Assembly (NCBI GenBank): GCA_034437815.1
Contig: DAOTTC010000072.1
Location: 15,041-79,040, forward strand
Source of the DNA: Chloroflexia bacterium
Lineage (GTDB): Bacteria > Chloroflexota > Chloroflexia > QHBQ01 > JADMIH01
Length of the DNA: 64,000 bases
Direction: 5' to 3'
Part shown: in pieces, positions 14,453 to 62,861 of the stretch
Position numbering within the stretch: position 1 is the first letter of the stretch
Layout: each line of letters opens with the position of its first letter
Program-made: the position numbers and the translations under genes
Notes under the pieces: generated by a model
The model's database searches: none
What the model was told of the DNA's origin: nothing
What the model saw: the letters and a program-made list of their open reading frames with translations, nothing else

Positions 14453-14460
14453 AACCTCGG

Positions 14461-14503
14461 TCTCATACTCATGCTCATACTCATACTCATGCTCATGCCC
14501 ATA
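14461..14503. repeat. Hexanucleotide microsatellite (CTCATA/CTCATG)7, on the minus strand (TATGAG/CATGAG)n, immediately upstream of the DnaD-like gene start
   Basis: Read directly. Confidence 0.9.
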
Positions 14504-14549
14504 CCTGTCTCAAATCTCTTGGGAAAAGCCATCTTATTTGGAATCGGCG

Positions 14550-44208: not shown

Positions 44209-46287
44209 ATGTCGTACCACCCCCACAACCCCCTGATTGTGCAGAGCGACCGCTCGCTTCTCCTCGAAGTGGACAACCCGCTGTACGAAGCGGCACGCGA
44301 CGAACTTGCGCGGTTCGCCGAACTGGAGAAAAGCCCGGAGCATATCCATACCTATCGAGTGACGCCGCTGTCGCTGTGGAACGCGGCCTCGGCTGGCATC
44401 ACGGTCGAAGAGGTGCTCGCCACGCTTGAGCGATACAGCAAGTTCGACCTGCCAGCCAATGTGCTGACCGACATCCGCGACTACATCTCGCGCTTCGGCA
44501 GGCTCAAGTTGGTGCGTTCCGAAGGGGGCGACCTGCTCCTGCGGTCCGAGGACCCCATGCTGGTTGCCGAGGTGGCACACCACAAGCACATCCAGCCTTA
44601 CGTGCTGGCCCGGCCCGACCGCAACACCTTGGTGATAGACCCACGCATGCGTGGGCATGTCAAGCAGGCGCTGGTGCAGTTCGGCTACCCGGCGGAAGAC
44701 CTCGCAGGCTACACCGAAGGTGACTATCTGCCTGTCACCCTGCGCCATACCAGCATGGCAGGCGCACCGTTCAGCCTGCGCCCCTACCAGTTGAACGCCG
44801 TAGCTGCTTTCTGGGCCGGAGGCACGGTGCACGGGGGGAGCGGCGTGGTGGTGCTGCCCTGTGGGGCTGGCAAGACCGTAGTGGGCATGGGTGTGATGGC
44901 TCAGGCGCATACCCATACCCTCATCCTCACCCCATCCACCACTGCCGTGCGCCAGTGGATATCTGAACTGCTGGACAAGACCTCGTTGACCGCCGAACAG
45001 GTGGGCGAATACACCGGCGACAGGAAAGAGGTGCGCCCAGTGACCGTCACCACCTACCAGATGCTCACCTACCGCCCATCGGTGAGTGCGGTTAACGAGG
45101 AGACCGGCGAGATCGGCGAGTTCCCACACTTCGAGCTGTTTACGAAGTACAACTGGGGGCTGATCATCTATGACGAAGTACACCTGCTGCCCGCGCCCGT
45201 CTTCCGCATCACCGCCGAGATACAGGCGCGGCGTCGGTTGGGCCTGACCGCCACCCTCGTGCGCGAGGACGGGCGCGAGACAGACGTGTTCTCGTTGATC
45301 GGCCCGAAGAAGTACGACGTGCCATGGAAAGATCTGGAGCGGCAGGGCTGGATCGCCACCGCCGAATGCACCGAAATACGCCTGCCCCTCACCCCTGAAG
45401 AACGCATGGAGTACATGCTCGCCGATGACAGCCGCATCAAGTACCGCATCGCCGCCGAGAACCCCCTGAAGATGGACGTGCTGTCGGCCCTGATAGAGCG
45501 GCACCGCGACGACTGCGTGCTGGTCATAGGCCAGTATCTGGGCCAACTCCAACACATCGCCCGTGAGTTCGGTGCGCCCCTCGTCACCGGTAAGACCCCT
45601 AACGCCGAGCGCGACCGCCTGTATGCCGACTTTCGAGAGGGCAGGCTGAAACTGCTGGTGGTGAGCAAGGTGGCGAACTTCGCCATAGACCTGCCCGATG
45701 CTAACGTAGCCATTCAGGTATCGGGCACATTCGGCTCGCGGCAGGAAGAGGCCCAGCGCCTTGGTCGTATATTGCGCCCCAAGAAAGATGGATCGGTAGC
45801 CAACTTCTACACTCTTGTGACCCATGACACCAAAGATCAGGACTTTTCTACTAATCGCCAACTCTTCCTGACCGAGCAGGGCTACAGGTATAATATCGTT
45901 GATGCGGCCGGCATCCTGCCCGACTTGCCCGCCCGCCTAGCCCGTATGCAAGCTGAATTCGACCGAAAGAAGCTGTCAGGCGAGTTCGATGTAGAGGCCC
46001 TGCTGGCGAAGCGCGGCCTCGATGGCGAGGACGGCAGCGCAGGCAAGAAGGGCACCCGAAGCGAGGCAAAGGTTCAACAGCAACAGCAAGCACAGGAGCC
46101 ACAGCGGCGTCGAAAGGCGCGCCCCGGCCATGGGAGAGGGCAAGCTGAGCAAGAGGCGCAGGCACACCTGCCCGAACTTGAGGCCGACATGGCAGCAGGT
46201 GCGGAGGACCGGCAGTCTGCCACGCGCCGCAGGGGGCGCCCACCCGGACGGCAATCCGGGCGCGACCACCTGCGCCTGATCAAATAG
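44209..46287 (+). CDS. XPB/Ssl2 (ERCC3)-type SF2 DNA helicase with a ~110-aa basic low-complexity C-terminal tail containing an AT-hook-like RGRPPGR
   Basis: N-terminal damage-recognition-like domain; helicase motifs LRPYQ (Q-motif), GAGKT (I), DEVH (II) and TATLVRED (III); motif VI region QRLGRILR. Tail KKGTRSEAKVQQQQQAQEPQRRRKARPGHGRGQ...RRRGRPPGRQSGRD. Confidence 0.8.
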   Translation: MSYHPHNPLIVQSDRSLLLEVDNPLYEAARDELARFAELEKSPEHIHTYRVTPLSLWNAASAGITVEEVLATLERYSKFDLPANVLTDIRDYISRFGRLKLVRSEGGDLLLRSEDPMLVAEVAHHKHIQPYVLARPDRNTLVIDPRMRGHVKQALVQFGYPAEDLAGYTEGDYLPVTLRHTSMAGAPFSLRPYQLNAVAAFWAGGTVHGGSGVVVLPCGAGKTVVGMGVMAQAHTHTLILTPSTTAVRQWISELLDKTSLTAEQVGEYTGDRKEVRPVTVTTYQMLTYRPSVSAVNEETGEIGEFPHFELFTKYNWGLIIYDEVHLLPAPVFRITAEIQARRRLGLTATLVREDGRETDVFSLIGPKKYDVPWKDLERQGWIATAECTEIRLPLTPEERMEYMLADDSRIKYRIAAENPLKMDVLSALIERHRDDCVLVIGQYLGQLQHIAREFGAPLVTGKTPNAERDRLYADFREGRLKLLVVSKVANFAIDLPDANVAIQVSGTFGSRQEEAQRLGRILRPKKDGSVANFYTLVTHDTKDQDFSTNRQLFLTEQGYRYNIVDAAGILPDLPARLARMQAEFDRKKLSGEFDVEALLAKRGLDGEDGSAGKKGTRSEAKVQQQQQAQEPQRRRKARPGHGRGQAEQEAQAHLPELEADMAAGAEDRQSATRRRGRPPGRQSGRDHLRLIK

Positions 46288-46597: not shown

Positions 46598-47965
<1,368 letters not shown>

Positions 47966-47973
47966 GGCCCCGG

Positions 47974-49449
47974 TCAGGGCAGGCTCAGCCATGGCACCCC
48001 GGTCCACGCACCCAGCATGCCCACCACATGGCCGGACGCGACGAACAGGATTATCTGCACCGCAATCAGCACAAGCACCTGCAAGCGCACAGGGGCGCGC
48101 AACCACCCCTTAAGTTGAAAACCATAAAGATAAGGGGGTGCGCTTGGCTGGCGTGGCCGCGCGCCGAACAGGCCCAACCACGCGATGGCCGTGAGCGTCG
48201 AGCCTGACAGGAGCACCGCCAACCATGCACCGCCCGCACCCGCGGCTGCCTGCGATACCATCAAGGTTCCGGCGAAGCCCCCGAAGGGCGGCAACCCCAA
48301 CATAGAAGCCACTCCTACCAGCAGGCCCACCCCCCTCCAGTTGCCGGCCACATCGGCGGCATTGGGCTTGCCGCACATTACCAGCAGGGGCACGGTCGCC
48401 GCCATGTTCAGCGCAAGCAGCACCGCGCCGATCGCTCCTGATTCAGACCCTGACAACACGCCGAACAGTGCCCACGCCGTCTGAAGCGCGGCGCTCGCGG
48501 CGATAAGGGTTGGTATCGCATGATCGGCGTTTCGGGTGCGAGCCGTATCCACCACCGCCAGCGCGCGCACGCCCGCGAGCACCGCGCCCAGCGCCCCCAG
48601 CCAGCTTGCCCCCCCGCCCGTCAGGCTGCCCTCCAATGGGGCAAGCATGAGCAGCCCTGACAGCACCACCGCCGGGACGACCGCGCCCAGCACCATCATG
48701 GCGACGCCGGGTGCGGCCCGCACCAGATCGGCCATTGCCATCGAAAAGGGCGTGGCCTCGGCTCTCATCATCAACCCTACTGAAAGCAACCCCGTGCCGA
48801 GTTGCAGCAAGGCCCTGTTCTCCAGACTGAAGGCATAACGGCTTATCAGCAACGCACCCGCAACCAGCAATGCCGTGCCCAACACAGCGATCGCCAGATG
48901 TTTGATTGCGCCCGCCATGCGTCTGGCGAGCAAAGCCCTCTCCGCATCATCGTAACCGTGCCGCAGAACCACCCCCGGCCTGCTCACCGCCACAGCCGAT
49001 GCGGTTAGCGCCGCCCCAAACAAGCAGAGGGCTGTGATTATGCGGTCCTGTGCCATGAGCGCAGCGCCCAACAGAGTGGAGGTCAGCAGGGCCGCCAGCA
49101 ACGTCCAGAACGGCTGGACGCTGTAGCCGGGCGTGTCTGCGCCTTCGGCCCAACTCGACAGTACCGAAGCCAGCAATGCGATGTTGGCGGCAAGCAACCC
49201 CAGTCTGGATGGCGGGGGTAGCGCGAGGTCAAGCCCCAACACAGACAGGGCGGCGTCGCCCTGCGCGAATCCCACCAGCAGTATTTCGAGCAGCAACCCG
49301 GCACACACAACCGCCGGCACCAACCTGTCCAGCCAGATCGCTGGTCGCTGTGGAATTCGTGTAGAGCGCGCAACCGCCGCCATCAGGGATGTCAGAGCGG
49401 CGGTGAGCAGTGGCACCAACAGCGCCCATGCGACTGCGTGCTCAATCAT
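47974..49449 (-). CDS. Complex-I antiporter-like membrane subunit (NuoN/NuoM/MrpD-like, Proton_antipo_M family), divergent and Ala-rich
   Basis: 491 aa with ~14 TM helices. A remnant of the family motif G.PP..GF appears as LGLPPFGGFAG. Last gene of the 5-gene module. Confidence 0.45.
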   Translation of the reverse strand: MIEHAVAWALLVPLLTAALTSLMAAVARSTRIPQRPAIWLDRLVPAVVCAGLLLEILLVGFAQGDAALSVLGLDLALPPPSRLGLLAANIALLASVLSSWAEGADTPGYSVQPFWTLLAALLTSTLLGAALMAQDRIITALCLFGAALTASAVAVSRPGVVLRHGYDDAERALLARRMAGAIKHLAIAVLGTALLVAGALLISRYAFSLENRALLQLGTGLLSVGLMMRAEATPFSMAMADLVRAAPGVAMMVLGAVVPAVVLSGLLMLAPLEGSLTGGGASWLGALGAVLAGVRALAVVDTARTRNADHAIPTLIAASAALQTAWALFGVLSGSESGAIGAVLLALNMAATVPLLVMCGKPNAADVAGNWRGVGLLVGVASMLGLPPFGGFAGTLMVSQAAAGAGGAWLAVLLSGSTLTAIAWLGLFGARPRQPSAPPYLYGFQLKGWLRAPVRLQVLVLIAVQIILFVASGHVVGMLGAWTGVPWLSLP

Positions 49450-50323
49450 CGGTTGCCGGAACCTCCGTCGTTGTTGTGGGCATCTTTTCTAACCCTTCGA
49501 CCTGCCGCTCGGTCCGCAAGCCCTCGTGCGCCGAAGGTGTATGCCTGTCTGCGTCTTCAGTTATGGGAACGAGGGACGTGTCTGTGGGGAAGATGCCTTC
49601 CCGAGCGTCGAACAGCGCATCGAGATCGAACCTGACGAAAGCCAGCCTGAGCATGAGCCAGCCGTAAGACATTATGGCGGCGAAGGCCAATCTACCCGCG
49701 GCCAGCAGGGCGAGGAACATCGGCCCCGGCTCGACCGCGCTCAGGTTGACCGTGAGCAATATGAGGCCGTTTATCAGCGCCAGCAACCCACCGGCCAGCT
49801 TCACCGGATTGCGCGCCCCATCCACCACCAGCGCGAGCACTCCAGCCAGCACCAACCAGTACAGTGCCAGCTCGGTCTGCTCGTCCCCACCTAAGGGGTA
49901 CAACCGCGCCAGTCCAACCCCGGCCACCCCGCCCGCGAGCACTATGGCCCACAACCAGAGCTGGTCTGTGAGCTTTGCCGGCCTCTGGCCCCGCCCCACT
50001 TGCTGTTCCTGCTCCTCGCTGCGCCGCAGGGTTGCCAACTGTGCCGGTTCCAGCCCCGGCAGTTGTTCCGGTCGGATGCGTTTCAGGGCGTACAGGGTGA
50101 AAGCCATGACGGCTACGCTGGCCGCGGCGGTCACCATCTCTACGACCACCACGGCACTCGCCCCACCCGATCCCGCCTGCACACCCTGCGCTTCGCCTGC
50201 CACCAGCGCCACGCCCACCCACTGCACGAGCAGCGCGCCGAGCAGCGCCCGTCCACCCTTCAGCGTTACGAGCGCAATGCTCCCCACTACCAGCAGAATC
50301 AGCGAAATAGACATGGCATGCAT
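49442..50323 (-). CDS. NuoK/MrpC-like small membrane subunit, fused or extended with a NuoJ/MrpB-like region and an acidic C-terminal tail
   Basis: The first ~100 aa align with the NuoK pattern (SISLILLVVGSIALVTLKGGRALLGALLV...VVVEMVTAAASVAV). The middle contains an NPV...GxL segment reminiscent of NuoJ. Overlaps the downstream gene by 8 nt. Confidence 0.4.
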   Translation of the reverse strand: MHAMSISLILLVVGSIALVTLKGGRALLGALLVQWVGVALVAGEAQGVQAGSGGASAVVVVEMVTAAASVAVMAFTLYALKRIRPEQLPGLEPAQLATLRRSEEQEQQVGRGQRPAKLTDQLWLWAIVLAGGVAGVGLARLYPLGGDEQTELALYWLVLAGVLALVVDGARNPVKLAGGLLALINGLILLTVNLSAVEPGPMFLALLAAGRLAFAAIMSYGWLMLRLAFVRFDLDALFDAREGIFPTDTSLVPITEDADRHTPSAHEGLRTERQVEGLEKMPTTTTEVPATDD

Positions 50324-50388: not shown

Positions 50389-50418
50389 TCTATCTGGTCT
50401 ATCTGGTCTATCTGATAG
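50389..50418. repeat. 9-bp tandem repeat (TATCTGGTC)3 spanning the stop codon of the NuoL-like gene
   Basis: Read directly. On the minus strand it reads AGA TAG ACC x3, giving three consecutive in-frame TAG stops. Confidence 0.9.
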
Positions 50419-52228
50419 CGGCCAAAATGGCGAGCAATGCGGCGATCAACGCCAGTGGCAAGTAATACCGCCCTTCCAGCCTGCCGAGCAGGTGCCCGGC
50501 CCTGATGCCGAGCCGCCCGAGCAGTGCCCCGGCACCCCATATGCCCGCCTCCATCCACGCCAGCGACAGCCACCACAACAGGGCAGGCGGGTGGCCGGGC
50601 AGCCCATCGCCCGTGCCTTGCGCCGTGCCGGTAGGCCGGTGTGCGGTCAGCGACAGCCTGCCTGTTCTGTGCAGCGCGGGCGGCAACAGTATGCCGCTTG
50701 GCACCACGCCAGCACCTGCCCACGCGACCACGAGCCGGCCCACAGCGCCGACGACCAGCGCCCCGACCGCCATGAGCAGCAGCGGCACCAGCAGCCCGCC
50801 GCTTTGCACGCCAACCCATGGCAGGGCGAGGTCGGGTCTGCCGCCCGCTATACCCGACGCTGCTGCTAGCCGGGGCAGCCATACCGCGGGCAACACCCCG
50901 CCCAGCACGAGTATGCCGGCTGCGGCCACACCCAGCGCGGTGAGCGCGCGGGGCTGCGGCACCTGCGGGGCCTCGTTCGTCATATAACCCAGTATTGCTC
51001 CACCCGCCGCGAGGATCGCCACTGCCACAACCCCGATAGCCAGCAGGGGGCGCTGTGTGCCGCTGAGAGCCGATGCCAGCAGCCATATGCCCACGAACCC
51101 CGAAGTCAGGGGCGCAGCGATAAGCGAAGCGAGGGCTGTACCCGCCGACAGCCGGTCCAGAGGGTGGGCGCTCATTGCCCCGCCCGCCAGCTCCAGCGCC
51201 ACCCGGCCGGCGCTAAAAGCGGTCAGGATGGCTACTGCCGCCAGCCTCCCGGTCGGGTTGTCGAGGGCCAGTGCCCACAGGGCAAGGCCCATAGCATGGG
51301 CCGTGAGGAGCGCGGTCCACCGGCCGGTGCCCGCCCATACCGGCAGTCCCGCCGCCGCGACCAGCGCAGTTAGCCCGCCCGCCCACATCAGGCCGGTTGT
51401 GAATGCAGTCCAGCCCGCAGGCACGGTGCCCCCAAGCGCCTGAGAGGTGATCAGGGCTTGCAACCGCAGTAGGAGCACCAGCGCCGGAATTCCGAGCACA
51501 AGCGCCTGCACGAGTGCGGTGGAAGCCCCTGCTGGCCCCTGCGCACTCCAGCCTGTGAAAGGCGACAGACCCAACCACAAGACCACGAACAGCGCCACCA
51601 GCACCAGCGGCCACGTAGCTATCGCCGACAGCGATACCTCCGAGAGATCGTACGCCCCTCCGGTGGCTCGCCCGACCAACAGCACAGCGGCCCACAGGCT
51701 GAGGGCGCCCAGCCCCAGTGTCAACGGTTGCCGCTTGCTATCCGTGTTGCCCGGCCCAGTCCTCCGGGCTGCGTCGGGTGTCTCACCCAGATTCGCCATG
51801 CCCCACGCGAGCACGGCGAGAAAGAGCACATGCCCGGCATAAGCCATCAGGTCGGAAATGTGAACCATGCTGTACAGGGTGGCAATGGTGAGCACACCCG
51901 TGCCTAGTTGCCATGGCGCACCGGCTCCGCGGCCCAGCTTGGTGAGGCACAACCCGCCCACGCACAGGCACCACACCCCTGCCCACGCTGACAGCGCATC
52001 GCTTCTGTAGTCTGGGGCATTGACCCACGCAAGCGCAGGGGGCCATGCAACACTGGTGCCTGCGATCCCCCCGCCGTTCGGCCCCTCAGTGGCAAGGGCT
52101 GTTGCCACCGCCAGCGCCGTGCCCCACACTGCGGATACTCTGGCAAGCAATTGTCCGTTGCGTGACAACCCCACCACGGGGCAGAGCGCGGCCGTTGCTA
52201 TGAGTATCAGTAAGGTTGCTACCACCAC
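50408..52228 (-). CDS. Complex-I antiporter-like large subunit (NuoL/MrpA-like, Proton_antipo_M family)
   Basis: 606 aa, NuoL-like length and N-terminus. Family motif remnants SDLMAYAGHVLFL (cf. K.LLAYSSI.HMG) and GLSPFTGW. The stop codon lies inside a 9-bp tandem repeat. Confidence 0.5.
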   Translation of the reverse strand: MVVATLLILIATAALCPVVGLSRNGQLLARVSAVWGTALAVATALATEGPNGGGIAGTSVAWPPALAWVNAPDYRSDALSAWAGVWCLCVGGLCLTKLGRGAGAPWQLGTGVLTIATLYSMVHISDLMAYAGHVLFLAVLAWGMANLGETPDAARRTGPGNTDSKRQPLTLGLGALSLWAAVLLVGRATGGAYDLSEVSLSAIATWPLVLVALFVVLWLGLSPFTGWSAQGPAGASTALVQALVLGIPALVLLLRLQALITSQALGGTVPAGWTAFTTGLMWAGGLTALVAAAGLPVWAGTGRWTALLTAHAMGLALWALALDNPTGRLAAVAILTAFSAGRVALELAGGAMSAHPLDRLSAGTALASLIAAPLTSGFVGIWLLASALSGTQRPLLAIGVVAVAILAAGGAILGYMTNEAPQVPQPRALTALGVAAAGILVLGGVLPAVWLPRLAAASGIAGGRPDLALPWVGVQSGGLLVPLLLMAVGALVVGAVGRLVVAWAGAGVVPSGILLPPALHRTGRLSLTAHRPTGTAQGTGDGLPGHPPALLWWLSLAWMEAGIWGAGALLGRLGIRAGHLLGRLEGRYYLPLALIAALLAILAAIR

Positions 52229-52332
52229 TTGCTGGTGTTGCCTCCTATGTCATCTGTCAGGTCCTGCCGGCGCAGGGGCACGGGCAGAATTCATTTCACG
52301 CCACCATGCCTCATACCGCCATGTCGCCGGGT

Positions 52333-53523
52333 TCACCGCTCGGCTGATGAGATGCACAGGTCCAGCGACAGCAGTAACAGGTGGATATCTTCGAACTTCC
52401 GTCCGCGCATCAAGCCGGCTACCACCCCCAGATTGGGCAAGGATGGCGCGCTGAGATGCAGTGCGCGTGGTCCATCGGGTCCCCCCCGCACCCAGCAGAA
52501 CACCTCGCCGCGCGGTCCTTCGACCCTGCCGATACCACTCCCTTCGCGTAGCTCTGGGCTGCCCCTAGCCTTCACCGAGCCTCCGGGCAGGTCGTCCAGC
52601 GCCTGTTCGATTATGCGCAGGCTTTCCAGACACTCCAGCAACCGCACCATCAGGCGGGCGAAAGCATCGCCGGCGCGCTGGGTCACTATAGTTACGCCTT
52701 CTTCCTCGTATGCGCCGGTGGGCCAGCTGGCCCTGATGTCAAACGGTATGCCCGATGCCCTCAGCACCGGCCCGCGCAACCCGGCGATCACCGCCTCCTG
52801 CGCCGTGATGACGCCTAGGCCCACCAGTCTGGCGGCAAGCTCGCGATTGGCTGTGGCAGCGATCACATGGGCGCGCAACGCCCTCTCTATATGGCGAACC
52901 GCCAGCGCCAGCGCTCGGCACAGCGCATCATCAATATTGCGGACCAGCCCTCCGTATGTGATAAGCGCGGGCCGGGTGCGCGCTCCACTCCAGTCGGCCA
53001 CGGCCTGCACCAGCCGCTCTCGCAGGTCGCGCAGCACCGTCTCTATGTGGGTGAGGCCCAGCGCCTGCATCGTTGCGGCGGCGTTTGACAGGTGCGAGAT
53101 GACGCGCTCGATCTCGGCCAGCACCATCCGCAGGTATGCGGCTCTGGGCGGTACGATGAACTTGGCCATAGCTTCGACCGCGTGCACGAGGGCCAGCGTG
53201 TTGGCCTGCGAGCAACACGCGCATATGCCTTCCACCAATTCAAGGGCGCGGCCCCATTCCAGCCTGCCCTCGGCTACGCGCTCTTCCAGACCGATGCGGC
53301 TGTATCCCAGCTCCACCTGTGCGCTCGCTATCTCTACCCCCCAACCGGGCAACCCGCCATCGCTCGATGGGCGCAGAGACAGGCTCAGGCGCATGGGCAC
53401 AGGCAGCATGGGGTGGTATGGCCCGATGACACAGGAATGGCCGGTGGTCTGCAAGTGCGCCGGTGGTGAGCCGGCCTCGGTTGAAGCCGACTGATTTCGC
53501 GAGGGGTGTAAATCTGTCGTCAT
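52333..53523 (-). CDS. NuoD / [NiFe]-hydrogenase large-subunit family protein (complex I 49-kDa-like) retaining 3 of the 4 hydrogenase Ni-ligand cysteine positions
   Basis: Alignable to NuoD along the whole length: GPYHPML..MRLSLSL vs GPQHP..LRLVLEL; VPPRAAYLRMVLAEIERVISHL vs VPDRVDVIRVMMAEFFRITSHL; C-terminal SLDLCISSAER vs hydrogenase DPCxSCTDR. The N-terminal CxxC (EGICACC) is present. Confidence 0.7.
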   Translation of the reverse strand: MTTDLHPSRNQSASTEAGSPPAHLQTTGHSCVIGPYHPMLPVPMRLSLSLRPSSDGGLPGWGVEIASAQVELGYSRIGLEERVAEGRLEWGRALELVEGICACCSQANTLALVHAVEAMAKFIVPPRAAYLRMVLAEIERVISHLSNAAATMQALGLTHIETVLRDLRERLVQAVADWSGARTRPALITYGGLVRNIDDALCRALALAVRHIERALRAHVIAATANRELAARLVGLGVITAQEAVIAGLRGPVLRASGIPFDIRASWPTGAYEEEGVTIVTQRAGDAFARLMVRLLECLESLRIIEQALDDLPGGSVKARGSPELREGSGIGRVEGPRGEVFCWVRGGPDGPRALHLSAPSLPNLGVVAGLMRGRKFEDIHLLLLSLDLCISSAER

Positions 53524-53538: not shown

Positions 53539-54063
53539 CTAAATCTCGATGTTGCGGAACACTACTGACAGCCTGCTTTGCACCTCGCTCTCCAGCAGAG
53601 CCGCCACGGGGTATATCCCCGCCACCGACCTCACAGCCCATGGGGGCGAGGTTATGCTCACAGTGTACACGATGTCGTCCTGTGCATAGAAATAGAGCAT
53701 GGTCACTTCATCTGCCTGCCCGGCGGCGTGGGCGGCCCTTCCGAGGGAAGCGGTGCGCTTTGGCCTGCTTTTATCAGTAGGGGCTGGGGGCGGGGTATGG
53801 CGTGCCGAGGTTGGCGCGAGCAGGGCGGCCCTCTCGCCCGTCATGGTGATCAGCGATGCGCCCGCCGACCTGAAAACCATGGCTATCTGGTCGGCCGGCA
53901 CATCTCGAAAGTGCAGGCGCACCTCACGCTCGTGCTCTTCCCGCATGAAGGTAAAGTGCGCGAGTTGCCTTTCGACGCCCGCCGGCCCGGCTTCGCTGGG
54001 TGGCTCTTGTTCGGGTTCGTGTTCGGGATGGGAGCCATGGAAGTGCGTGTCGTTGCCGTGCAT
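53539..54063 (-). CDS. NuoC / hydrogenase 30-kDa-subunit-like protein with a His/Glu-rich N-terminal extension
   Basis: The C-terminal core IVYTVSITSPPWAVRSVAGIYPVAALLESEVQSRLSVVF follows the NuoC pattern (P..P.SVT.I.p.A.W.EREV.D.FGI.F). N-terminus MHGNDTHFHGSHPEHEPEQEPP. First gene of the module. Confidence 0.45.
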   Translation of the reverse strand: MHGNDTHFHGSHPEHEPEQEPPSEAGPAGVERQLAHFTFMREEHEREVRLHFRDVPADQIAMVFRSAGASLITMTGERAALLAPTSARHTPPPAPTDKSRPKRTASLGRAAHAAGQADEVTMLYFYAQDDIVYTVSITSPPWAVRSVAGIYPVAALLESEVQSRLSVVFRNIEI

Positions 54064-54246
54064 CTCTGTTCACCAAAGGTAAGTTGACACCAGCGGCTAC
54101 TATACCAGCATACCCCATGGCCGTCAAGCGAGGTGACCCGACAGGCTTCCACCAACAATCGGGGTTACCAGTGGTCAAGAGGGGCTTGGAGAGGGCATAG
54201 CCCTCCCGGCCTTCCTTTGTGCCGTTTATTATTGGAGCCGTGCTAT

Positions 54247-55506
54247 AATAGCACCATGCGCATAGCGTTCAATGGGTATTTCTGGGACAGGCCTCGCACC
54301 GGCTCCGGCCAGTATCTGCGCCATCTATGGATCACCCTCTCTGATATCTACTGCGCCACTAGCTCTGGCTCTGATGGTGAGCATCTGGTCATGCTACTGC
54401 CGCCGGGTGCCTCCCCGGCTGAGCCGGTGCCCACCGGCGCTTGCTCTTACGCCGTAGCCGCAAGGCCAACATTGATGACCGGTAGAAGCGCAAAACTCGA
54501 TAAGCTGATATGGGAGCAGACGGTGAGCCAGATGGAGGCTCGGCGGCAGCGCGCCCACCTGCTGCACGTGCCTTACCTGTCGGCCCCGATCCTCAGGTCC
54601 TTGCCTGTGGTGGTGACCGCACACGATATGATACCGTGGGTGCTGCCCGGTTACGCGGGCAACCCGGCGTTCAGGCTGTATCTTATGGTAGTGGCGGCAG
54701 GGGTAAAGCGGGCCAACCTGATCGTGACCGATTCCGATGCTTCGCGGCGCGACGTGTTGAGAATACTGAAGATGCCTGCGCATAAAGTGCATACCGTCTA
54801 TCTGGGCGTGACACCGCCACCTGCCTTTACTCCCGCTCAACTGGAGGAAGTCCGGGCGCGCTATGGACTGCCCCCTCACTTCGCTTTTTACATGGGCGGT
54901 TTTGACCGCCGCAAGAACGTGCCCCTGCTGCTCAGGGCGTGGCGTCGGGTGCTGGATTCTATGGCGGCTGATGCGCCCCCTCGTTCGGATGAGAGCACGC
55001 CCGTGCTGGCAATCGGGGGGAGCGTGCCTGTGCCGGGCGGCATATTCCCTGACGTTATCGGCGAGGCCACAGCTCTGGGCCTGATGGGCGGCCCCGGCGC
55101 ACCGGTGCGCTTTCTGGGCGCAGTTGGCGAGGGTGACAAGTTCGCGCTCATGTCCGCCGCAAGGCTGTTCGTCTATCCGTCGGCCTACGAGGGCTTCGGG
55201 CTGGACCCTCTAACGGCCATGGCCTGCGGGTGTGCCGTTGTATCGTCGTTGGGCGGGTCGCTGGCCGAGGTGGTGGGCGATGCCGGCGTGCTGGTGCCCC
55301 CACAGGACGAAGACGCCCTGTGCGGGGCTATACGACGGGTGTGGGCCGATGGCGATCTGAGGGCCGAGCTTGCCTGCCGTGGGCAGCAACGCGCCCGTCT
55401 CTTTACATGGGAGCGCACCGCCCGCCAGACCCACGACCTATACCTGCTGGCGCTCAGGCAGGCTCGCCGCCGGCGCGGATCGAGAGGAGGGCGCACACAA
55501 CCTTGA
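54247..55506 (+). CDS. GT4-family glycosyltransferase (glycosyl transferase group 1)
   Basis: GT-B architecture; C-terminal EX7E-like region (AYEGFGLDPLTAMACGCAVVSS). ATG at 54247. Confidence 0.7.
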   Translation, partial: NSTMRIAFNGYFWDRPRTGSGQYLRHLWITLSDIYCATSSGSDGEHLVMLLPPGASPAEPVPTGACSYAVAARPTLMTGRSAKLDKLIWEQTVSQMEARRQRAHLLHVPYLSAPILRSLPVVVTAHDMIPWVLPGYAGNPAFRLYLMVVAAGVKRANLIVTDSDASRRDVLRILKMPAHKVHTVYLGVTPPPAFTPAQLEEVRARYGLPPHFAFYMGGFDRRKNVPLLLRAWRRVLDSMAADAPPRSDESTPVLAIGGSVPVPGGIFPDVIGEATALGLMGGPGAPVRFLGAVGEGDKFALMSAARLFVYPSAYEGFGLDPLTAMACGCAVVSSLGGSLAEVVGDAGVLVPPQDEDALCGAIRRVWADGDLRAELACRGQQRARLFTWERTARQTHDLYLLALRQARRRRGSRGGRTQP

Positions 55507-55523
55507 GCGCGACCGACCGTGTG

Positions 55524-56765
55524 ATGGAGCCGATTGAGCAAGCGAGGGCCACCCGCCATGCAAAGCACACCCCGCTTGACCCTGACTGTGGCCTGGCTGA
55601 GCGGCGTGAGCGCTTACGCGTTATGTGGCTGTGGCATGCGGCCGTGGTTGCCGAGTACCAGAAGCCCTTGGCCGTGCTGGCCGAATGCCCCGGCATAGAA
55701 GCTGTGCTGTTGGTGCCCCACCGCTGGCCTGAGCGGCCCGGCCAGATGGTGCACACCGAGAGGTTGCCCGGCGCGCGTTTCCGGCTCGTCAGAGCGCGCA
55801 CGGTGTTCACCGGTTTGTATTTCATCTATTTCTTCCCCAGCCTGCTCTATCATCTGCTCCGCTGGCGGCCCGATATCCTCTACTGCTACGAAGAGGCGCA
55901 TGCCTTCATCTCGGCGTGCGTGCTGATGATACGAAAGGTGCTCTTGCCTGATATGCGGGTGTTGCTGTATGCCGCACAGAACATAAGGAAGCGATATCCA
56001 CCGCCATTCAGCATGTTCGAGCGTTTCTGCTTCCGCAACGCTGACGCGATTATGGCCTGTGGGATTACGGTCGCCCGCACCCTGCGCTCCAAGGGATACA
56101 GAGGAGAGTTATACGTGGTGCCCTTACCTGTGGACACGCATGCTTTCGCCCCCGACCCCGACAAGCGCGCATACGTCAGAGAGCGGTTGGGCATCCCCAA
56201 CGACGCGCTGGTGATCGGCTATGCGGGCAAGCTGGTCGAAGCGAAAGGCATACGCACTCTGTGGCGGGCCTTTGTGGGCATAGCGCGCCAGCACCCTCAG
56301 GCTCATCTGGTGATGGCGGGGGCAGGTCCATTGCAAGAAGAACTGCTGGGGGCCGCCCGCGCCGCTGGGCTGGCAGATAGGCTGCATCTGGTTGGGGTGG
56401 TGCACAACGCTGACCTTCCGGCCTTCATGAACGCGCTGGACGTGTTCGTGCTCCCCTCGGAGACGCGGCCAAACTGGCGCGAGCAGTTCGGCCGGGTTGC
56501 GGTCGAAGCGATGGCCTGCGGCGTGCCCGTGGTCGGCTCCGACTCGGGCGAGATACCGCATGTGCTGGACGGGGTGGGTCTGCTGTTCCCGGAAGGGGAT
56601 GCTTCAGCGCTCGGTACCTGCCTGCGCGCACTGCTGACCGATCGAACGATGCGCGAGGAGCTTGGCCATATGGGCAGAAGGCGGGTGCTGGAGCTGTTCA
56701 CTACGGAAAGGGTGGCTGCTTGCCACTATTCGGTGTACAAGGATTTGATGCGTGGCTCTGAGTGA
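55524..56765 (+). CDS. GT4-family glycosyltransferase (second paralog)
   Basis: GYAGKLVEAKG, ETRPNWREQFGRVAVEAMACGVPVVGSDSGE (EX7E). Start uncertain: an alternative is the M of VMWLWHAAV at ~55623. Confidence 0.7.
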   Translation: MEPIEQARATRHAKHTPLDPDCGLAERRERLRVMWLWHAAVVAEYQKPLAVLAECPGIEAVLLVPHRWPERPGQMVHTERLPGARFRLVRARTVFTGLYFIYFFPSLLYHLLRWRPDILYCYEEAHAFISACVLMIRKVLLPDMRVLLYAAQNIRKRYPPPFSMFERFCFRNADAIMACGITVARTLRSKGYRGELYVVPLPVDTHAFAPDPDKRAYVRERLGIPNDALVIGYAGKLVEAKGIRTLWRAFVGIARQHPQAHLVMAGAGPLQEELLGAARAAGLADRLHLVGVVHNADLPAFMNALDVFVLPSETRPNWREQFGRVAVEAMACGVPVVGSDSGEIPHVLDGVGLLFPEGDASALGTCLRALLTDRTMREELGHMGRRRVLELFTTERVAACHYSVYKDLMRGSE

Positions 56766-56785
56766 CGCATGCCACCGATGACAGA

Positions 56786-58477
56786 ATGCGTACGACGCTC
56801 GAACAATATAAGCTAAACACCCCCACACCTGCCACCTCTACAGGCACTGTCATTCGTCAGGGTCAGGCGTTTCATCTTACCGCAGACCTGTGGTCCGCGC
56901 TGGGCGGACTGCTGCTGGTGGCGGCGCTGGCCTTTGCCATCATCTGGTCTGCCAGCAACCCATCGGTGGCCGGGCGAGAGGCCACCCGCACGGCGGCTGC
57001 CCTGCTGCGCGAAGGCAGATATTCGCAGGCCGTGGCTCTGCTTGAGCGCACCCTGCTCGATTATGACTCCCCGCAATTGCGCATCTGGTTGTCCTATGGC
57101 TATCTGGCCCGGCGGGATGCGGAGCGCGCCGGACGGCAGGCCCAGATAGCCATCTCCAAGTCGCCACCCCATCTGTTGCCTGAGGCGTGGTCGCAACTCG
57201 GCAGGGTGCTGGCCTTTGAGGGGAACCACGATCGGGCACTGGAGGCTTGGTCTCAAGCTATCGCCCACGCCCAACCCCTCACCGCCAACAAGGCGGTAGA
57301 GGCACACTTGCGCTCTGCCCTGTGGCACAGCGCGATGACCTTCTGGCGGCGTGGCGACTGGGACCCCTCTCGACGGATGCTGGAGCGGCTGTTGGAGAAA
57401 AGGGATTTGTACGGCGATTCGGCACGCCTGAAATTGGCTCAGTTGGTGGCACCGGACGACCAAGCCCGGTCCCTGCAACTGCTTGCCGAACTGGAGGCCG
57501 GTTGGCAGAGCCACTCGCAGGACGGTGCGCAATGGTTGGCCGGCAGTGCGGTGCCCGACCTGCGAGTGCCGGGCCTACGCGAAGGCATGCCATTGCAGGC
57601 ACTCCGTCGTGATGCACAGACCCTGCGCCGCGCCCTTGAACAGGCGTCGCAGGCGCAGCGGGCCGGGGGCGATGAAGCCACCATCGCTATCATCTGGGGC
57701 AATGCCTACCTGCAACAGGACGAGGCCCGGCTGGCAAAACGTTATCTGGAGAGGGCGGTTGCCCTCAACCCCCGCTCGGCGGAGGCGCACACAGGCCTCG
57801 GCATCGCCCTGATGCAACTGGGCGATGCCGACCGCGCCATATCTCACTTGCAGACGGCGGCCCGTCTGGACCGCAGCCAGCCTTTGCCGCACCACGCGCT
57901 AGTCGAGGTGTACATTCAACGCAAGCAGTGGGCGTCGGCCGCGCACGAGCTTGGCGTGCTGAGCGACTTGCAGCCCGCCAGCGTCATAGTGCGCATGCAA
58001 AGGGCCGAGTATTACGTTCAGACCGGATATTATGCGGATGCCGAAAACGAGTACATCGGCGCGGTGAACCTACAGCGTGGTGGGGCGCCGGACGCGGGCA
58101 AGGTGGACGCCATGCTGGCCCTTGCCCGGTTTTATACAGACGTGCGCGGTATGGGTTGTGAGAAGGGCCTGTCGCCGGCCCAAGAGTCTCTGGCCCGCAA
58201 CCCCGATGATCCTGCCTCGCTGGATGCTGTCGGCTGGTCGTTGGTGCTGTGCAACAGACCTGCCGAGGCCCTGCCCCATCTGGAGCGCGCCGTGTCGCTG
58301 GCCCCAGACGTGCCCCGTTATCGCTATCATCTGGCTAAGGCATATGCCGCCCTCAGGCGTTACACAGACGCACGCGACCAATATATCCGCGTCATGGATT
58401 TCGACCCCGGCGGCCCATGGGAGCGGATGGCTCGGTCGGACCTCGCCCAGTTGCCTCAGATGCACGGCCAGCCATGA
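56786..58477 (+). CDS. Tetratricopeptide-repeat (TPR) protein with an N-terminal TM anchor
   Basis: Multiple TPR-like helix pairs (W..LG......A...Y..A) and a TM segment (LWSALGGLLLVAALAFAIIW). A GTG at 56762 overlapping the upstream stop is an alternative start. Confidence 0.6.
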   Translation: MRTTLEQYKLNTPTPATSTGTVIRQGQAFHLTADLWSALGGLLLVAALAFAIIWSASNPSVAGREATRTAAALLREGRYSQAVALLERTLLDYDSPQLRIWLSYGYLARRDAERAGRQAQIAISKSPPHLLPEAWSQLGRVLAFEGNHDRALEAWSQAIAHAQPLTANKAVEAHLRSALWHSAMTFWRRGDWDPSRRMLERLLEKRDLYGDSARLKLAQLVAPDDQARSLQLLAELEAGWQSHSQDGAQWLAGSAVPDLRVPGLREGMPLQALRRDAQTLRRALEQASQAQRAGGDEATIAIIWGNAYLQQDEARLAKRYLERAVALNPRSAEAHTGLGIALMQLGDADRAISHLQTAARLDRSQPLPHHALVEVYIQRKQWASAAHELGVLSDLQPASVIVRMQRAEYYVQTGYYADAENEYIGAVNLQRGGAPDAGKVDAMLALARFYTDVRGMGCEKGLSPAQESLARNPDDPASLDAVGWSLVLCNRPAEALPHLERAVSLAPDVPRYRYHLAKAYAALRRYTDARDQYIRVMDFDPGGPWERMARSDLAQLPQMHGQP

Positions 58478-58754: not shown

Positions 58755-59675
58755 ATGAAATCACGTGGAGGTCGTTTCCTGCTAGTTCTGGGCGCTCTGC
58801 TGGCGGCCATGGCGTTTGTAGTCGTGTACGTGGTTATGTCCAAGACTACATCAGACATCGAAGCCGCCACGGTGCCCACACCTGCGCCGATGAAGGCGGT
58901 GGTCGTGGCCACGGGCGATCTGCCTGCTTACACCATGCTCAGCGCGAGCAATGTGGTGTTGCAGGAGGTGGAGGCCACCACAGTCACATCCAACACCGTT
59001 ACCGACCCGAGCGCCGTTTACGGCAAAATGACCCTCGTACCCCTCACCAAGGGCCAGCAGCTCCAGCAGAACTATGTGACCCAGTCGGGCTTCTCCACAG
59101 TGCTGGCTAAGGGCGAGAAGGCGTTTGCGCTGGCGGTCACCGAGCGCAACACTTTTGGTGGGGCCGTCACAGAGAACGACCGGGTTGACGTGCTGTGGAC
59201 CACCACCTTCCGCACGTGGGTTGCCAAGCCCGGCCCACAGGGGCAGGTAGAGTATGTGGAATCCGTGTTCACGAGCACCAAAACCCTGCTTCAGGACATC
59301 CACGTGCTGCGCGTAATTGACCTGCGTCCGCCCGTGCCCACAGAGGGTCAAGAGAGTCAGGCTCAACCCGCGTCCACCACCAATGGCAGCCCTACCCAGA
59401 GTAATGCCCCTTCACCTGAGATGTATGCGGAAGACGCTCCCTATCAGGCGGTGCTCATTCTGGGCGTTACCGACCAGCAGGCAGAGGTGCTCAAGTTTGC
59501 GCGCGAAAACGGTATCTTGGACCTGACCCTGCGCTCGTCGGCCACCTTCAAGGCTGCCGATGGTCAAGAGATGAAGGGTGACCGCGAGGCCGAGAAGACC
59601 ACCGGTATCACCATTGATAAGTTGATAACCGATTACGGCCTGCCCACACCGAAGATAGTGGAAATAGGCAGGTAA
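58755..59675 (+). CDS. cpaB: Flp pilus assembly protein CpaB/RcpC
   Basis: N-terminal TM; SAF-like domain; KGEKAFALAV...GGAV..NDRVDVL. Confidence 0.8.
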   Translation: MKSRGGRFLLVLGALLAAMAFVVVYVVMSKTTSDIEAATVPTPAPMKAVVVATGDLPAYTMLSASNVVLQEVEATTVTSNTVTDPSAVYGKMTLVPLTKGQQLQQNYVTQSGFSTVLAKGEKAFALAVTERNTFGGAVTENDRVDVLWTTTFRTWVAKPGPQGQVEYVESVFTSTKTLLQDIHVLRVIDLRPPVPTEGQESQAQPASTTNGSPTQSNAPSPEMYAEDAPYQAVLILGVTDQQAEVLKFARENGILDLTLRSSATFKAADGQEMKGDREAEKTTGITIDKLITDYGLPTPKIVEIGR

Positions 59676-59743
59676 AGCGAAAGCGCTACATGGGGTATGG
59701 GGTATGTGACATGTGGTATGGGGCACGTGCAACATGCGCTAAC

Positions 59744-59818
59744 CGTGCACGTTTCACATATCACGCAACAGGCGGCTACCACACGTCACGTTTTACCCGT
59801 CACGCATCACGTTTCATG
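59744..59818. promoter_or_regulatory. Cluster of direct repeats of CACGTTTCA / TCACG(C/T)(A/T)TCAC in the cpaB-cpaE intergenic region
   Basis: gtgCACGTTTCACatATCACGcaac ... CACGTCACGTTTtacccGTCACGcATCACGTTTCAtg, read directly 25-100 bp upstream of the cpaE start. Confidence 0.5.
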
Positions 59819-59841
59819 AAAGGACGAATCAGGAGCTCATC

Positions 59842-61161
59842 ATGGACAATCAGGCAGTGAACGGCAGCATGCCGAAAATAGGCGTGCTCATCGTTGACGA
59901 CATAGCCGATACGCGCGATAACCTGAGCAAACTGCTGTTGTTTGAGCGCGACATCGAGGTCGTGGGCACGGCGGGCAGTGGGCCGGAAGCCATAGAGATG
60001 TGCCGCCGCGCCAACCCCGACGTAGTGCTCATGGACATCAATATGCCCGAGATGGACGGCATTAAGGCCGCCGAGATCATCAGCAGCGAATTCCCGGGCA
60101 TGGGCCTGATCATGATGTCGGTGCAGGGCGAGCAGGACTACCTGCGCCGCGCCATGCTGGCCGGGGCCAGAGAGTTTCTGGTCAAGCCCTTCTCAAGCGA
60201 TGAGTTGGTGCGCTCCATCCGCCATGTGTACAGGCTGGAATCCACCAAGCGGGCTATGGCCGCCGCGGCGGCTGTGCCGGGCACCGGCATGCTCACCCCT
60301 CAGGGGCAGGCCGGGGGCGACGGCGAGCCACGCCACGGTAAGATCTTGACCGTGGTAAGCCCCAAAGGTGGGGTAGGCAGGACCACCGTCGCGGTGAACC
60401 TCGCCGTGGCACTCAAGCTGTCCACTCAGAAGAAGGTGGCCCTTGTGGATGGCTCGCTGTATTTCGGCGATGTCGGGGTCATGATGAACCTGCTGTCCAA
60501 TAAGACGTTGATTGATGCTGTGGAGCATATAGACGGGTTGGACGAGGACCTGCTGAACGACCTGATGTCCACCCACTCATCGGGGGTGAAGGTGCTGCTG
60601 GGACCACCCCAACCCGAACAGGCCGAACTGGTGACCGCCGAGCACATCCGCCGGATTCTGGTGGGCCTCACCGCCGGCTATGACTATGTGGTCGTGGATA
60701 CGTGGCCGTCCTTTGCCGAGACGGTGCTCACCGCTATGGATCTGGCCGACCACATCCTGCTCGTCATGACCCTCGAGATGACGGCCATCAAAGACGTCAA
60801 GCTGTATCTGGAGGTCGTGGAGAAGCTCAACTACCCGGCGGAGAAGGTCAAGCTCATCCTCAACCGGTCAGGCAGTTCGGGCGGCATCAAAGTGGAAGCG
60901 GTGGAGGAAACCCTGCGTCACAAGGTGATGGTGGGGTTGAGCAACGACTTCGTGGCTATGCAAACTGCCATCAATCAGGGTGTGCCGCTGGTTATTTCGG
61001 CCAGAGAGCACCCGTTCTCTCGAGATATCTATCGGTTGGCCCGGCTGTTGACCGCCACAACCGTTGAGGACAAGGCTCTGGCGCAGGCCACGGCGGCTGT
61101 GCGTGCCGAGGAAGCTAACCGCACCAAGCTCATGTCCAAGCTCAAAGCGGCGTTCAGATGA
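59842..61161 (+). CDS. cpaE: CpaE/TadZ pilus-assembly ParA/MinD-family ATPase with an N-terminal response-regulator receiver (REC) domain
   Basis: REC motifs (IVDDIADTR, acceptor Asp in VLMDINMPEMDG, LVKPF) and a deviant Walker A (SPKGGVGRTTVAVN). Confidence 0.8.
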   Translation: MDNQAVNGSMPKIGVLIVDDIADTRDNLSKLLLFERDIEVVGTAGSGPEAIEMCRRANPDVVLMDINMPEMDGIKAAEIISSEFPGMGLIMMSVQGEQDYLRRAMLAGAREFLVKPFSSDELVRSIRHVYRLESTKRAMAAAAAVPGTGMLTPQGQAGGDGEPRHGKILTVVSPKGGVGRTTVAVNLAVALKLSTQKKVALVDGSLYFGDVGVMMNLLSNKTLIDAVEHIDGLDEDLLNDLMSTHSSGVKVLLGPPQPEQAELVTAEHIRRILVGLTAGYDYVVVDTWPSFAETVLTAMDLADHILLVMTLEMTAIKDVKLYLEVVEKLNYPAEKVKLILNRSGSSGGIKVEAVEETLRHKVMVGLSNDFVAMQTAINQGVPLVISAREHPFSRDIYRLARLLTATTVEDKALAQATAAVRAEEANRTKLMSKLKAAFR

Positions 61162-61220
61162 TCTGATTTGGCGCATGACATGAATGGTGTAATCCAAACC
61201 CCATAGCGTGAGGTAAAGCG

Positions 61221-62684: not shown

Positions 62685-62861
62685 AGCGTAGTGTAGTGGG
62701 CAATAGGTGAGGCTATGCCCTATGGCAGATGGTCATGACGAGCCAAAAATGGGGGTGCTGGGCTTACTTGGTAGCGTGGGGGTACAGGTGTATCCCGATG
62801 TCATATTCTGTTTTCACAGTCCTTTCGGAAAGGGTTGGTATCACAGGTCAAGGAGGGTGAG

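Follow-up and report, generated by a model that had tools for sequence, protein, structure and literature searches.

In a stretch of 64,000 nucleotides from a Chloroflexia bacterium (contig DAOTTC010000072.1; the whole stretch is called the window below), the second gene of a five-gene operon encodes a protein, here named D (open reading frame (ORF) 52333..53523), with the fold shared by the large subunits of [NiFe]-hydrogenases and by NuoD of complex I. D stands at the derived end of a reductive evolution that led away from hydrogenase; it is no step toward complex I. The ancestor of its family had a cysteine at each of the four nickel-ligand positions, and the window's lineage has replaced the fourth of these with an adjacent cysteine, C103. 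What this exchange would preserve is a pocket that binds a metal ion or a small cofactor through four thiolates, in a structural or a sensing role, on a membrane scaffold like that of the Mrp antiporters. That is our preferred reading and, judged from the sequences and with its claims of identity included, we consider it likely, if not strongly so.

Members of the superfamily that joins complex I to the group-4 hydrogenases are usually redox-driven ion pumps, equipped with a wire of iron–sulfur (Fe-S) clusters, a NuoH-type chamber, and relays of lysine and glutamate residues. The Chloroflexia family described here has discarded wire, chamber, and relays, yet it stands under strong purifying selection, and its four-cysteine pocket has been rebuilt by swapping. 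It is, in other words, a natural experiment on a large-subunit pocket acting alone. What does such a pocket do?

Results

The cysteine swap

We number the nickel-ligand positions 1 to 4; in window D they are C101, C104, C390, and S393. Residues 98–107 read E-G-I-C101-A-C103-C104-S-Q-A, and the protein ends S-L-D-L-C390-I-S-S393-A-E-R-stop. The earlier note on this DNA had picked out both segments (EGICACCSQA and SLDLCISSAER), had proposed that three of the four ligand positions are still cysteines while the fourth is serine, and had asked whether these cysteines map onto the hydrogenase motifs L1 and L2. They do. A phmmer alignment to Pyrococcus MbhL sets EGICACCS on ERMCGICS and SLDLCISSAER on SIDPCLSCTDR, and in a MAFFT alignment of 181 sequences the cysteine columns of D are the RxCGxC/DPCxxC columns of 70 canonical group-4 large subunits, the identical columns reading R-L-D-Y / GExDR in 21 NuoD sequences. 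C101 and C104 stand at positions 1 and 2, with C103 (at the position we call L1+2) an extra cysteine between them; position 3 is kept as C390, position 4 is S393, and the proline of DPC has become leucine. Of the L1 motif R-x-C-G-x-C-x-x-x-H, both cysteines are present, the arginine is glycine, and the histidine is asparagine. The L2 motif D-P-C-x-x-C-x-x-[HR] is not matched by window D (D-L-C-I-S-S-A-E-R); most relatives, which read D-L-C-L-P-C-A-E-R, have the cysteine pair and lack the proline. A sequencing error as the source of the serine is ruled out: its codon, TCA, lies two substitutions from any cysteine codon, and the same state recurs in 22 of 99 family members.

To speak of three ligands out of four is nonetheless misleading. 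The family consensus, E-x-L-C-G-x-C-S-Q-A-N ... S-L-D-L-C-L-P-C-A-E-R, has all four ligand cysteines, and the extra cysteine covaries with the loss of the fourth (Cys4). Among the 99 full-length members, 70 have the plain CxxC/CxxC pattern; 21, window D included, have C-x-C-C with serine at ligand 4; seven have both the L1+2 cysteine and Cys4, five cysteines in all; and one, to which we return in the Discussion, has neither. The L1+2 cysteine is thus found in 21 of the 22 members that lack Cys4, as against 7 of the 77 that keep it (table 21/7/1/70; Fisher p = 1.5e-14). C101 and C390 are invariant in the family, as is a fifth cysteine, C343, and at least 90% of members have C104. The position of C343 holds tyrosine or histidine in canonical group-4 hydrogenases and tyrosine, valine, or phenylalanine in NuoD, and it is also cysteine in the sister lineages P0147/L106 and L027/L028. 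Neither the covariation nor C343 had figured in the earlier note.

Did the exchange happen once? A single shared origin of the CxCC/Ser state is ruled out. Fitch parsimony, run on 100 neighbor-joining (NJ) bootstrap trees built with the motif columns removed, required, on every tree, four or more changes at ligand 4 (median 6) and five or more at L1+2. Because the closest relative of window D, P0002 (69% identity), is CARC/CLAC, the swap in the window's lineage was an event of its own. Five-cysteine forms adjoin several of the swapped clades, which suggests that the extra cysteine was gained first and Cys4 lost later. Because the pairing of serine with CxCC arose at least four times, we infer that a four-thiolate site is kept by ligand swapping, with the geometry that such a swap implies; selection, that is, would be keeping four thiolates and hence a metal or cofactor site.

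Relatives and descent

Among 5.8 billion proteins searched, some 95 D homologues stood at 56–69% identity, after which identity fell sharply to 35%. When 1.84 billion cluster representatives were searched exhaustively with a profile, the family came back as one full-length representative plus fragments; the next-best matches were overwhelmingly proteins of the ERxCGxCSxxH/DPCxxCxxR type. All named members come from uncultured Chloroflexia or from metagenome-assembled genomes (MAGs) of Chloroflexota, chiefly in soil collections, and the D complex is confined to Chloroflexota, mainly uncultured soil Chloroflexia. The JGI labels of these proteins vary among NuoD, Ech, and hydrogenase-3 (Ni,Fe-hydrogenase III) large subunit. 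On the window's contig, the public JGI gene calls are short (D 327 aa instead of 396, TM1 495 aa instead of 606), and orthologue alignment backs the longer forms. A plus-strand ORF of 421 aa at 52229-53494, longer than D itself, was set aside as an antisense shadow of D in a region of 64% GC; it is D that has some 100 homologues.

What kind of protein is D? Pfam places it in Complex1_49kDa (PF00346, 1.9e-43), with a sub-threshold match to NiFeSe_Hases over residues 93-145. The NuoD models of NCBIfam score it far under their cut-offs (NF004739, 203.6 against 360 bits; TIGR01962, 164.9 against 459.35). That its best NCBIfam match is called NuoD is uninformative as a subgroup label, since true four-cysteine hydrogenase types also match NuoD best in this library, which is without large-subunit models specific to Ech, Mbh, or Coo. 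The closest solved structure is Pyrococcus MbhL (6cfw_L; phmmer E 3.4e-42), matched from residue 35 to the last residue, followed by Yarrowia NUCM (1.2e-33), Escherichia coli HycE (4.8e-30), Thermus Nqo4 (1.7e-25), and MbsL (2.7e-25).

Residue by residue, of the 57 positions at which canonical group-4 enzymes show conservation of 85% or more, window D keeps 46. Among the hydrogenase-specific residues that it has lost are those at E42, R99, H108, and P389, that is, a glutamate (90% conserved in the canonical enzymes), the L1 arginine (100%), the L1 histidine (93%), and the L2 proline (100%), all replaced. It has also lost residues common to hydrogenases and NuoD (R77, R358, P360, N364, and, counted here as well, R99). 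No change in window D moves toward the NuoD signatures, save that the glutamate position is Gly/Val, as it is in NuoD; where NuoD has the tyrosine of R-L-D-Y, the D family has alanine or glycine, and window D reads G-I-C-A.

The trees agree with this picture. In NJ bootstraps over 359 columns the D family was monophyletic in 100 of 100 replicates, and the R-L-D-Y NuoD proteins formed a clade of their own in 95. In 97 the D family joined at least five four-cysteine hydrogenases before any NuoD, so that the placement outside ordinary NuoD, for which the earlier note had asked, holds. The D family paired with P0147 (a C-D pair with CEGC/CLAC) in 69. By the alignments and trees, the D family descends from group-4 hydrogenases of the Mbh/Ech type, branching among them rather than with NuoD.

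Two further loci, in 'Ca. Chlorohelix' (L027, 9983-15664) and in a Chloroflexia MAG (L028, 754-6594), carry a D-TM1-TM2-TM3-B operon at 36–37% identity, where B is the NuoB-like small subunit described below. No C-like gene stands upstream; their D has four ligand cysteines and C343; and their B is without the Fe-S cysteines. This Chlorohelix-type operon retains the glutamate of the hydrogenase 'DEP' motif, antiporter domains that Pfam can detect, and the TM12 lysine of TM3, and it seems to represent one and the same reductive series at an earlier point. The series would lead from a canonical group-4 hydrogenase through the Chlorohelix type to the soil Chloroflexia family and, at its tip, to the window, where Cys4 has been swapped and the NuoB-like gene has gone from the operon.

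The operon and its missing parts

The window's cluster lies on the minus strand in the order C-like, D, TM1, TM2, TM3. Its relatives have six genes: a truncated NuoC-like gene, D, a NuoL-like gene, an orphan membrane protein, an MrpD/NuoN-like gene, and a NuoB-like gene. Order and content are kept across lineages that are just 36-69% identical, and all five ORFs of the window are intact and of the length typical for the family. Purifying selection acts on all six operon genes, and on D above all: by the Nei-Gojobori method, in five pairwise comparisons with a synonymous divergence (dS) of 0.19-1.3, the ratio of nonsynonymous to synonymous change (dN/dS) was 0.05-0.27 across the six genes, lowest in D (0.05-0.10) and 0.17-0.27 in the C-like gene.

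The C-like protein stops just past a conserved 'YP.A...ERE.Q..L.VVF' motif. Its orthologues match PF00329 only faintly, and the orthologue of a sister lineage matches it clearly. The family's hidden Markov model (HMM) finds NuoC-like ORFs that adjoin real hydrogenase large subunits (L025 at 1.2e-6, L024 at 1.2e-4, L026 at 1.1e-3), and the sole match of the protein in the Protein Data Bank (PDB) is MbsK (E 0.31).

At 15 related loci with enough sequence to judge by, TM3 is followed by a sixth gene for a NuoB/hydrogenase small subunit protein (PF01058) of 143–157 aa, the best solved relative of which is MbhJ (3.3e-18). Its four [4Fe-4S] cysteines are replaced by P/A/S, by D/A, by an invariant D, and by D/S/E, and because all four are gone the family's small subunit cannot hold the proximal (N2) cluster. 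That the small subunit is absent from the window itself, as had been noted earlier, is borne out: the NuoB-like HMM finds no match in six frames of the 64 kb, and it is sensitive enough to match canonical NuoB and MbhJ homologues at other loci at 1e-12 to 1e-24. At L008, TM3 is followed by a convergent trigger factor instead of the NuoB-like gene. Because the gene is missing in the window and in L008 and present in L087, a locus of the window's own subclade, it left the operon at least twice.

Other partners were sought. HMMs for NuoB, NuoH, NuoJ, NuoK, NuoL, and NuoM picked up no canonical gene in the window, nor did its Pfam annotation name any, and no homologue of NuoI, the ferredoxin subunit, was found in the operon or the window. 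There are no hyp, nuo, or Ni-transport genes in the 64-kb window or in the annotated ±10-kb flanks of seven related loci. Beside the operon, neither the window nor the flanks of its relatives show a conserved partner gene.

Upstream, and transcribed away from the operon (window 54133-58477, +), are two GT4 glycosyltransferase genes and a gene for a TPR-repeat protein. The same genes stand upstream in L001, L002/L003, and L004 and are absent there in L005 and L087; the arrangement could be a matter of conserved synteny, or it could point to a functional tie with the cell envelope.

The membrane subunits

TM1 had no Pfam match and no sequence match in the PDB, and the search of 5.8 billion proteins returned nothing outside its family; its Chlorohelix orthologue, however, matches PF00361 at 1.1e-15. 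An AlphaFold2 model of TM1 (predicted local distance difference test (pLDDT) 77, predicted template modeling score (pTM) 0.81) was matched by Foldseek, at E of about 1e-11, to MrpA/MrpD, NuoL (TMq 0.66 over ~680 columns), NuoN, HycC, MbsH', and NdhF, and hhalign set TM1 against NuoM with 86% probability (E 4.9e-6). The profile of the TM3 family matches MrpD (6z16_D, 2.3e-5) and MbhH (6cfw_H, 2.4e-5), with hhalign giving 90% probability against NuoM (E 1.6e-6) and NCBIfam a match to NuoN (9.7e-5). The 14-helix antiporter-like fold is thus found in TM1 by Foldseek and in TM3 by profile and hhalign.

What these two subunits seem to have given up is the relay. In TM1, a lysine-bearing 'GKSAQ' segment falls in a gap, the position in transmembrane helix 12 (TM12) is valine, and the TM5 glutamate, TM7 lysine, and TM12 lysine are not seen; in TM3, the TM7 lysine has become arginine, the TM12 Lys/Glu has become threonine, and the TM5 and TM8 positions fall in gaps. 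The alignments indicate that the canonical proton-relay lysines and glutamates have gone from both, with some uncertainty at single positions, which were read from profile alignments of remote homologues.

TM2 is the orphan of the complex. It is conserved in every operon, Chlorohelix included (HMM E 4.7e-18), and its invariant residues include E62, R171, K175, N185, and R211. Neither the window protein nor 12 orthologues nor the Chlorohelix versions have a Pfam match; a profile search of the PDB gave YidC alone, at E 0.07, which we take as chance; and the AlphaFold2 model, from six sequences, reached a pLDDT of 59, with nothing below E 0.4 in Foldseek. TM2 does not resemble NuoH, and hhalign comparisons with self-built profiles of NuoH, NuoJ, and NuoK were nonsignificant (NuoH probability 0.1%, NuoK P=0.035, NuoJ P=0.009). 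P0292, which matches TM2 at 100% identity across 99% of the length, occurs in independent Logan/ENA assemblies, on contigs of up to 8.3 kb; the same or a near-identical organism has therefore been sampled elsewhere.

Features and other genes of the window

Coordinates of the D operon and of the sites discussed, in positions of the window
Feature	Position	Strand	Remarks
C-like subunit, 174 aa, truncated NuoC / hydrogenase-3 component-G-like	53539..54063	-	first operon gene
D-like subunit, 396 aa, hydrogenase-large-subunit / NuoD fold	52333..53523	-	PF00346 and MbhL match
L1-equivalent Cys cluster C101-A102-C103-C104, codons TGC GCG TGT TGC	53212..53223	-	
C343, fifth cysteine, motif G-P-R-G-E-V-F-C-W	52495..52497	-	invariant across D family
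L2-equivalent motif D388-L-C390-I-S-S393-A-E-R396	52336..52362	-	
TM1, 606 aa, NuoL / MrpA / HycC-type antiporter-like, C-terminal extension	50408..52228	-	Foldseek on AlphaFold2 model
TM2, 293 aa, orphan membrane subunit, 7-8 helices, acidic C-terminal tail	49442..50323	-	
TM3, 491 aa, MrpD / MbhH / NuoN-M-type antiporter-like	47974..49449	-	overlaps TM2 by 8 nt
Operon 3' end	47966..47973	.	8 bp between TM3 and convergent purA (46607-47965, +)

Elsewhere in the window, a Suf cluster for Fe-S assembly (SufS, SufB/D, SufC), with a weak MarR-like regulator, occupies 5346-10325 (-). It is housekeeping Fe-S biogenesis and has no link to the D operon. A CDF cation-efflux gene follows at 11275-12327. 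At 12682-15917 (-), a DnaC/IstB-like ATPase, a protein with a DnaD/DnaB_2 domain, and the replicative DnaB helicase stand in a row, a helicase-loader arrangement in the style of the Firmicutes, here in a Chloroflexia genome. Beside purA, at 44209-46287 (+), lies an XPB/ERCC3-type helicase (Helicase_C_3, ResIII, ERCC3_RAD25_C), whose C-terminal tail is long, basic, and of low complexity. Genes for a Tad/Flp-type pilus run from 58755 to 63848 (+): an RcpC/SAF-domain protein, a CpaE-like fusion of response regulator and ParA, a CpaF ATPase, and a TadB-like membrane protein.

Discussion

In our preferred reading, D, derived from a hydrogenase, keeps a four-cysteine site exactly where the NiFe center sits, and where Cys4 became serine, as in the window, the L1+2 cysteine would have taken over, an exchange that recurred at least four times. 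Bound by the four thiolates there would most likely be one metal ion, whether Zn, Fe, or Ni, or else a small cofactor, and the center so formed would be structural or sensing, seated on a remodeled Mrp-like membrane scaffold. D would be neither an enzyme that evolves or oxidizes H2 nor a quinone reductase, because there is no Fe-S wire and because the hydrogenase-specific glutamate, arginine, histidine, and proline are lost; a non-hydrogenase metal site is most likely. One might go further and imagine that the hydrogenase active-site pocket has found a new use as a self-contained tetrathiolate center which, with no electron-transfer chain, controls a relay-less Mrp-type module. That proposal strikes us as unlikely, and we mention it for what it would mean. 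The center could sense H2, CO, O2, sulfide, or redox state, or it could be a switch that binds Ni, Fe, or Zn; were it so, D would belong to the first member of the complex I superfamily to work without any Fe-S wire, and its ligand set would have been re-engineered repeatedly, with Cys4 moved to L1+2.

Several points weigh against the preferred reading, and they should be kept in view. The evidence that the four cysteines bind a metal is their conservation and covariation. One member in 99, L018, has serine at ligand 4 with no extra cysteine; that locus (L018:2209-3357) reads CLSS and CGSC, its close relatives L016 and L017 are four-cysteine forms, and its state may stem from a recent loss or from a variant of the assembly, or it may show that three cysteines can suffice. 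The search for hyp genes covered the window and the ±10-kb flanks of relatives, so that some probability of a [NiFe] cofactor is left. The trees are NJ trees on a MAFFT alignment, without labeled HydDB, Ehr, or Mbx references. A NuoB-like subunit, finally, may be encoded elsewhere in the window's genome: a scan of JGI metagenome contigs found the gene at 17 loci, none on the window's sample (Ga0400900), in a search that needed exact motif matches and in a collection in which the presence of that sample is uncertain.

What else might the pocket be? The main rival would have the four or five cysteines of D carry an Fe-S cluster or another redox cofactor that trades electrons directly with a soluble protein (ferredoxin or thioredoxin, for example), so that the complex would still be redox-driven or redox-sensing, its sole cluster having moved into the large subunit. 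Five cysteines are indeed conserved (C101, C104, C343, C390, and either C393 or C103), their tolerance of a swap is easier to square with a four-thiolate cluster or metal than with a NiFe site of exact construction, no other subunit is as constrained as D, and the loss of the cluster in B removes the usual wire and would make any redox chemistry local. The ligand cysteines of the NiFe site, however, lie too close together in hydrogenase structures for a standard cubane; no partner gene is conserved beside the operon; and the membrane subunits lack proton-relay residues for any known use of redox energy. We find the idea doubtful. To the thought that D still carries [NiFe] and binds or splits H2, either as an unconventional hydrogenase or as an H2 sensor that equilibrates without electron transfer, we give little credence. 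Most members have both cysteine pairs, held to be a strong indicator of hydrogenase function (PMC3144371), and JGI labels many of them Ni,Fe-hydrogenase III or Ech large subunit; the arginine of the PRG 'canopy', the L2 aspartate, and the ...ER terminus, as in Ech and Mbh, are also retained. Set against this are a partner small subunit that has no Fe-S cluster ligands and is absent in the window, replacement of all four hydrogenase-specific residues, replacement of the bridging Cys4 in 22% of members, window D among them, the want of any NuoI-like ferredoxin or NuoH-like subunit, and the lack of hyp genes in the window or the flanks of the loci. The D family is rather a counterexample to the rule of the cysteine pairs, because its Fe-S wire is missing.

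Two older ideas fare worse. The earlier note had wondered whether this is a degenerating hydrogenase, and it was right that the hallmarks of one are lost: cofactor ligands, relay residues, and, in the window, the B gene have gone progressively, and one member is down to three cysteines. Yet a decaying relic, an ex-hydrogenase operon on its way to becoming pseudogenes with cysteines left by chance, should hardly keep five intact ORFs, a dN/dS that is low throughout and lowest in D, and an order and content conserved at such distances, nor should C101, C390, and C343 be invariant and the compensating cysteine recur independently. The gene is maintained, and a relic is very improbable, a reading we regard as largely excluded. 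The same note had also put forward an evolutionary intermediate between group-4 hydrogenase and NuoD. Partial loss of nickel ligands does occur in Mbx, in Fpo, and in 'ancestral' Nuo, where the first and third are reported to be retained (PMC4758237), and because it is known there it is unremarkable taken alone; the best NCBIfam match is a NuoD model, though four-cysteine hydrogenases share that distinction; and the glutamate position does hold Gly/Val, as in NuoD. But the D family joins four-cysteine hydrogenases before it joins NuoD, which keeps to its own clade; the NuoD signatures are absent, R-L-D-Y standing opposite E-G-I-C-A; residues shared by hydrogenases and NuoD are lost; the serine state is derived within a four-cysteine family; and window D is the most reduced tip of a Chloroflexota-specific series, no basal form. 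NuoH, which together with NuoD and NuoB forms the quinone site, is absent, as are the genes for NuoI, NuoJ, and NuoK and the N2 cluster. An intermediate on the road to complex I is so improbable that we regard it, too, as largely excluded.

What do we learn if our preferred reading, a non-hydrogenase metal or cofactor site, is right? The four-cysteine pocket is conserved more strictly than the rest of the complex. If its site is a sensor or a new catalytic center, one of the oldest bioenergetic modules has acquired a new function; if it is merely structural zinc, the family still shows, cleanly and in abundant soil bacteria, how a respiratory scaffold can be exapted. There is a caution here, too, against annotation by counting cysteines: rules in the style of HydDB, built on CxxC pairs, would call most members of this family hydrogenases, and a partial loss of ligands need not mark an evolutionary intermediate.

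Comparison with known systems

We found no description of this Chloroflexia family in the available literature, and so the best that one can do is to ask which of the known systems it most resembles. Nearest are the large subunits of the group-4 hydrogenases (MbhL, 6CFW chain L; EchE/CooH/HycE), which have the same fold, align with D over the full length including the C terminus, have cysteines in the same L1 and L2 columns, and end, as D does, at ...ER without a cleavable extension. The partners of the Mbh-type enzymes, which are NuoC-like, MbhJ-like, NuoL-like, and MrpD-like, also resemble those of D, and the D family falls within the group-4 radiation in our trees, where no HydDB subgroups are labeled. 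The differences are as plain: group-4 hydrogenases have the L1 arginine and histidine, the L2 proline, the N-terminal glutamate of the proton relay, and Cys4, and they have no C343; and they have a [4Fe-4S] small subunit, a NuoH-like anchor (EchB/MbhM/HycD), and a NuoI- or ferredoxin-like subunit (EchF/MbhN/HycF), all three of which the D complex is without.

In Mbx/Mbs (MbsL, 6U8Y chain L), FpoD, and 'ancestral' NuoD, as in D, only some of the four nickel ligands survive. MbsL is farther from D than MbhL is (2.7e-25 against 3.4e-42), and the complexes to which these proteins belong are redox enzymes, their Fe-S small subunit still in place alongside NuoH- and NuoI-like subunits, whereas the D complex has lost its Fe-S wire and the D family, unlike them, holds its cysteine count at four by the swap. 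NuoD itself (Nqo4, the 49-kDa subunit) has the fold, PF00346, and the shared core residues that D keeps; it differs in its R-L-D-Y and GExDR signatures, its nuo neighbors, its separate clade, and the curated scores that D misses. With the Mrp antiporters (MrpA/MrpD; 6Z16, 7D3U) the likeness lies in the membrane, TM1 having the MrpA/NuoL fold and TM3 the MrpD/NuoN fold. In contrast to Mrp, these two subunits lack or have exchanged the TM5 glutamate, TM7 lysine, TM8 Lys/His, and TM12 Lys/Glu, the membrane module is capped by a hydrogenase-like one, and no equivalents of MrpB, MrpE, MrpF, or MrpG were recognized.

There remain the energy-converting-hydrogenase-related (Ehr) complexes, of which the earlier note had been reminded. 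They are relatives of the group-4 enzymes that lack the residues coordinating nickel and iron (PMC6349859, PMC12342949), and their function is not established (PMC6349859, PMC12342949, PMC7894505). An Ehr complex such as GSU0739-45 of Geobacter sulfurreducens is, like the D complex, a membrane complex related to the group-4 hydrogenases, with antiporter-like subunits of the Mrp kind, and probably no hydrogenase; both combine large- and small-subunit-like proteins with a NuoL-like subunit, another subunit of the antiporter type, and a small, polytopic membrane protein. To that extent the likeness stands. It does not extend to the definition: Ehr, as described in print, lacks the Ni/Fe ligands, whereas the D family, under strong constraint, keeps four cysteines at or beside the ligand positions. 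The D complex is best read, we believe, as a new variant of the hydrogenase-related (Ehr-like) membrane complexes.

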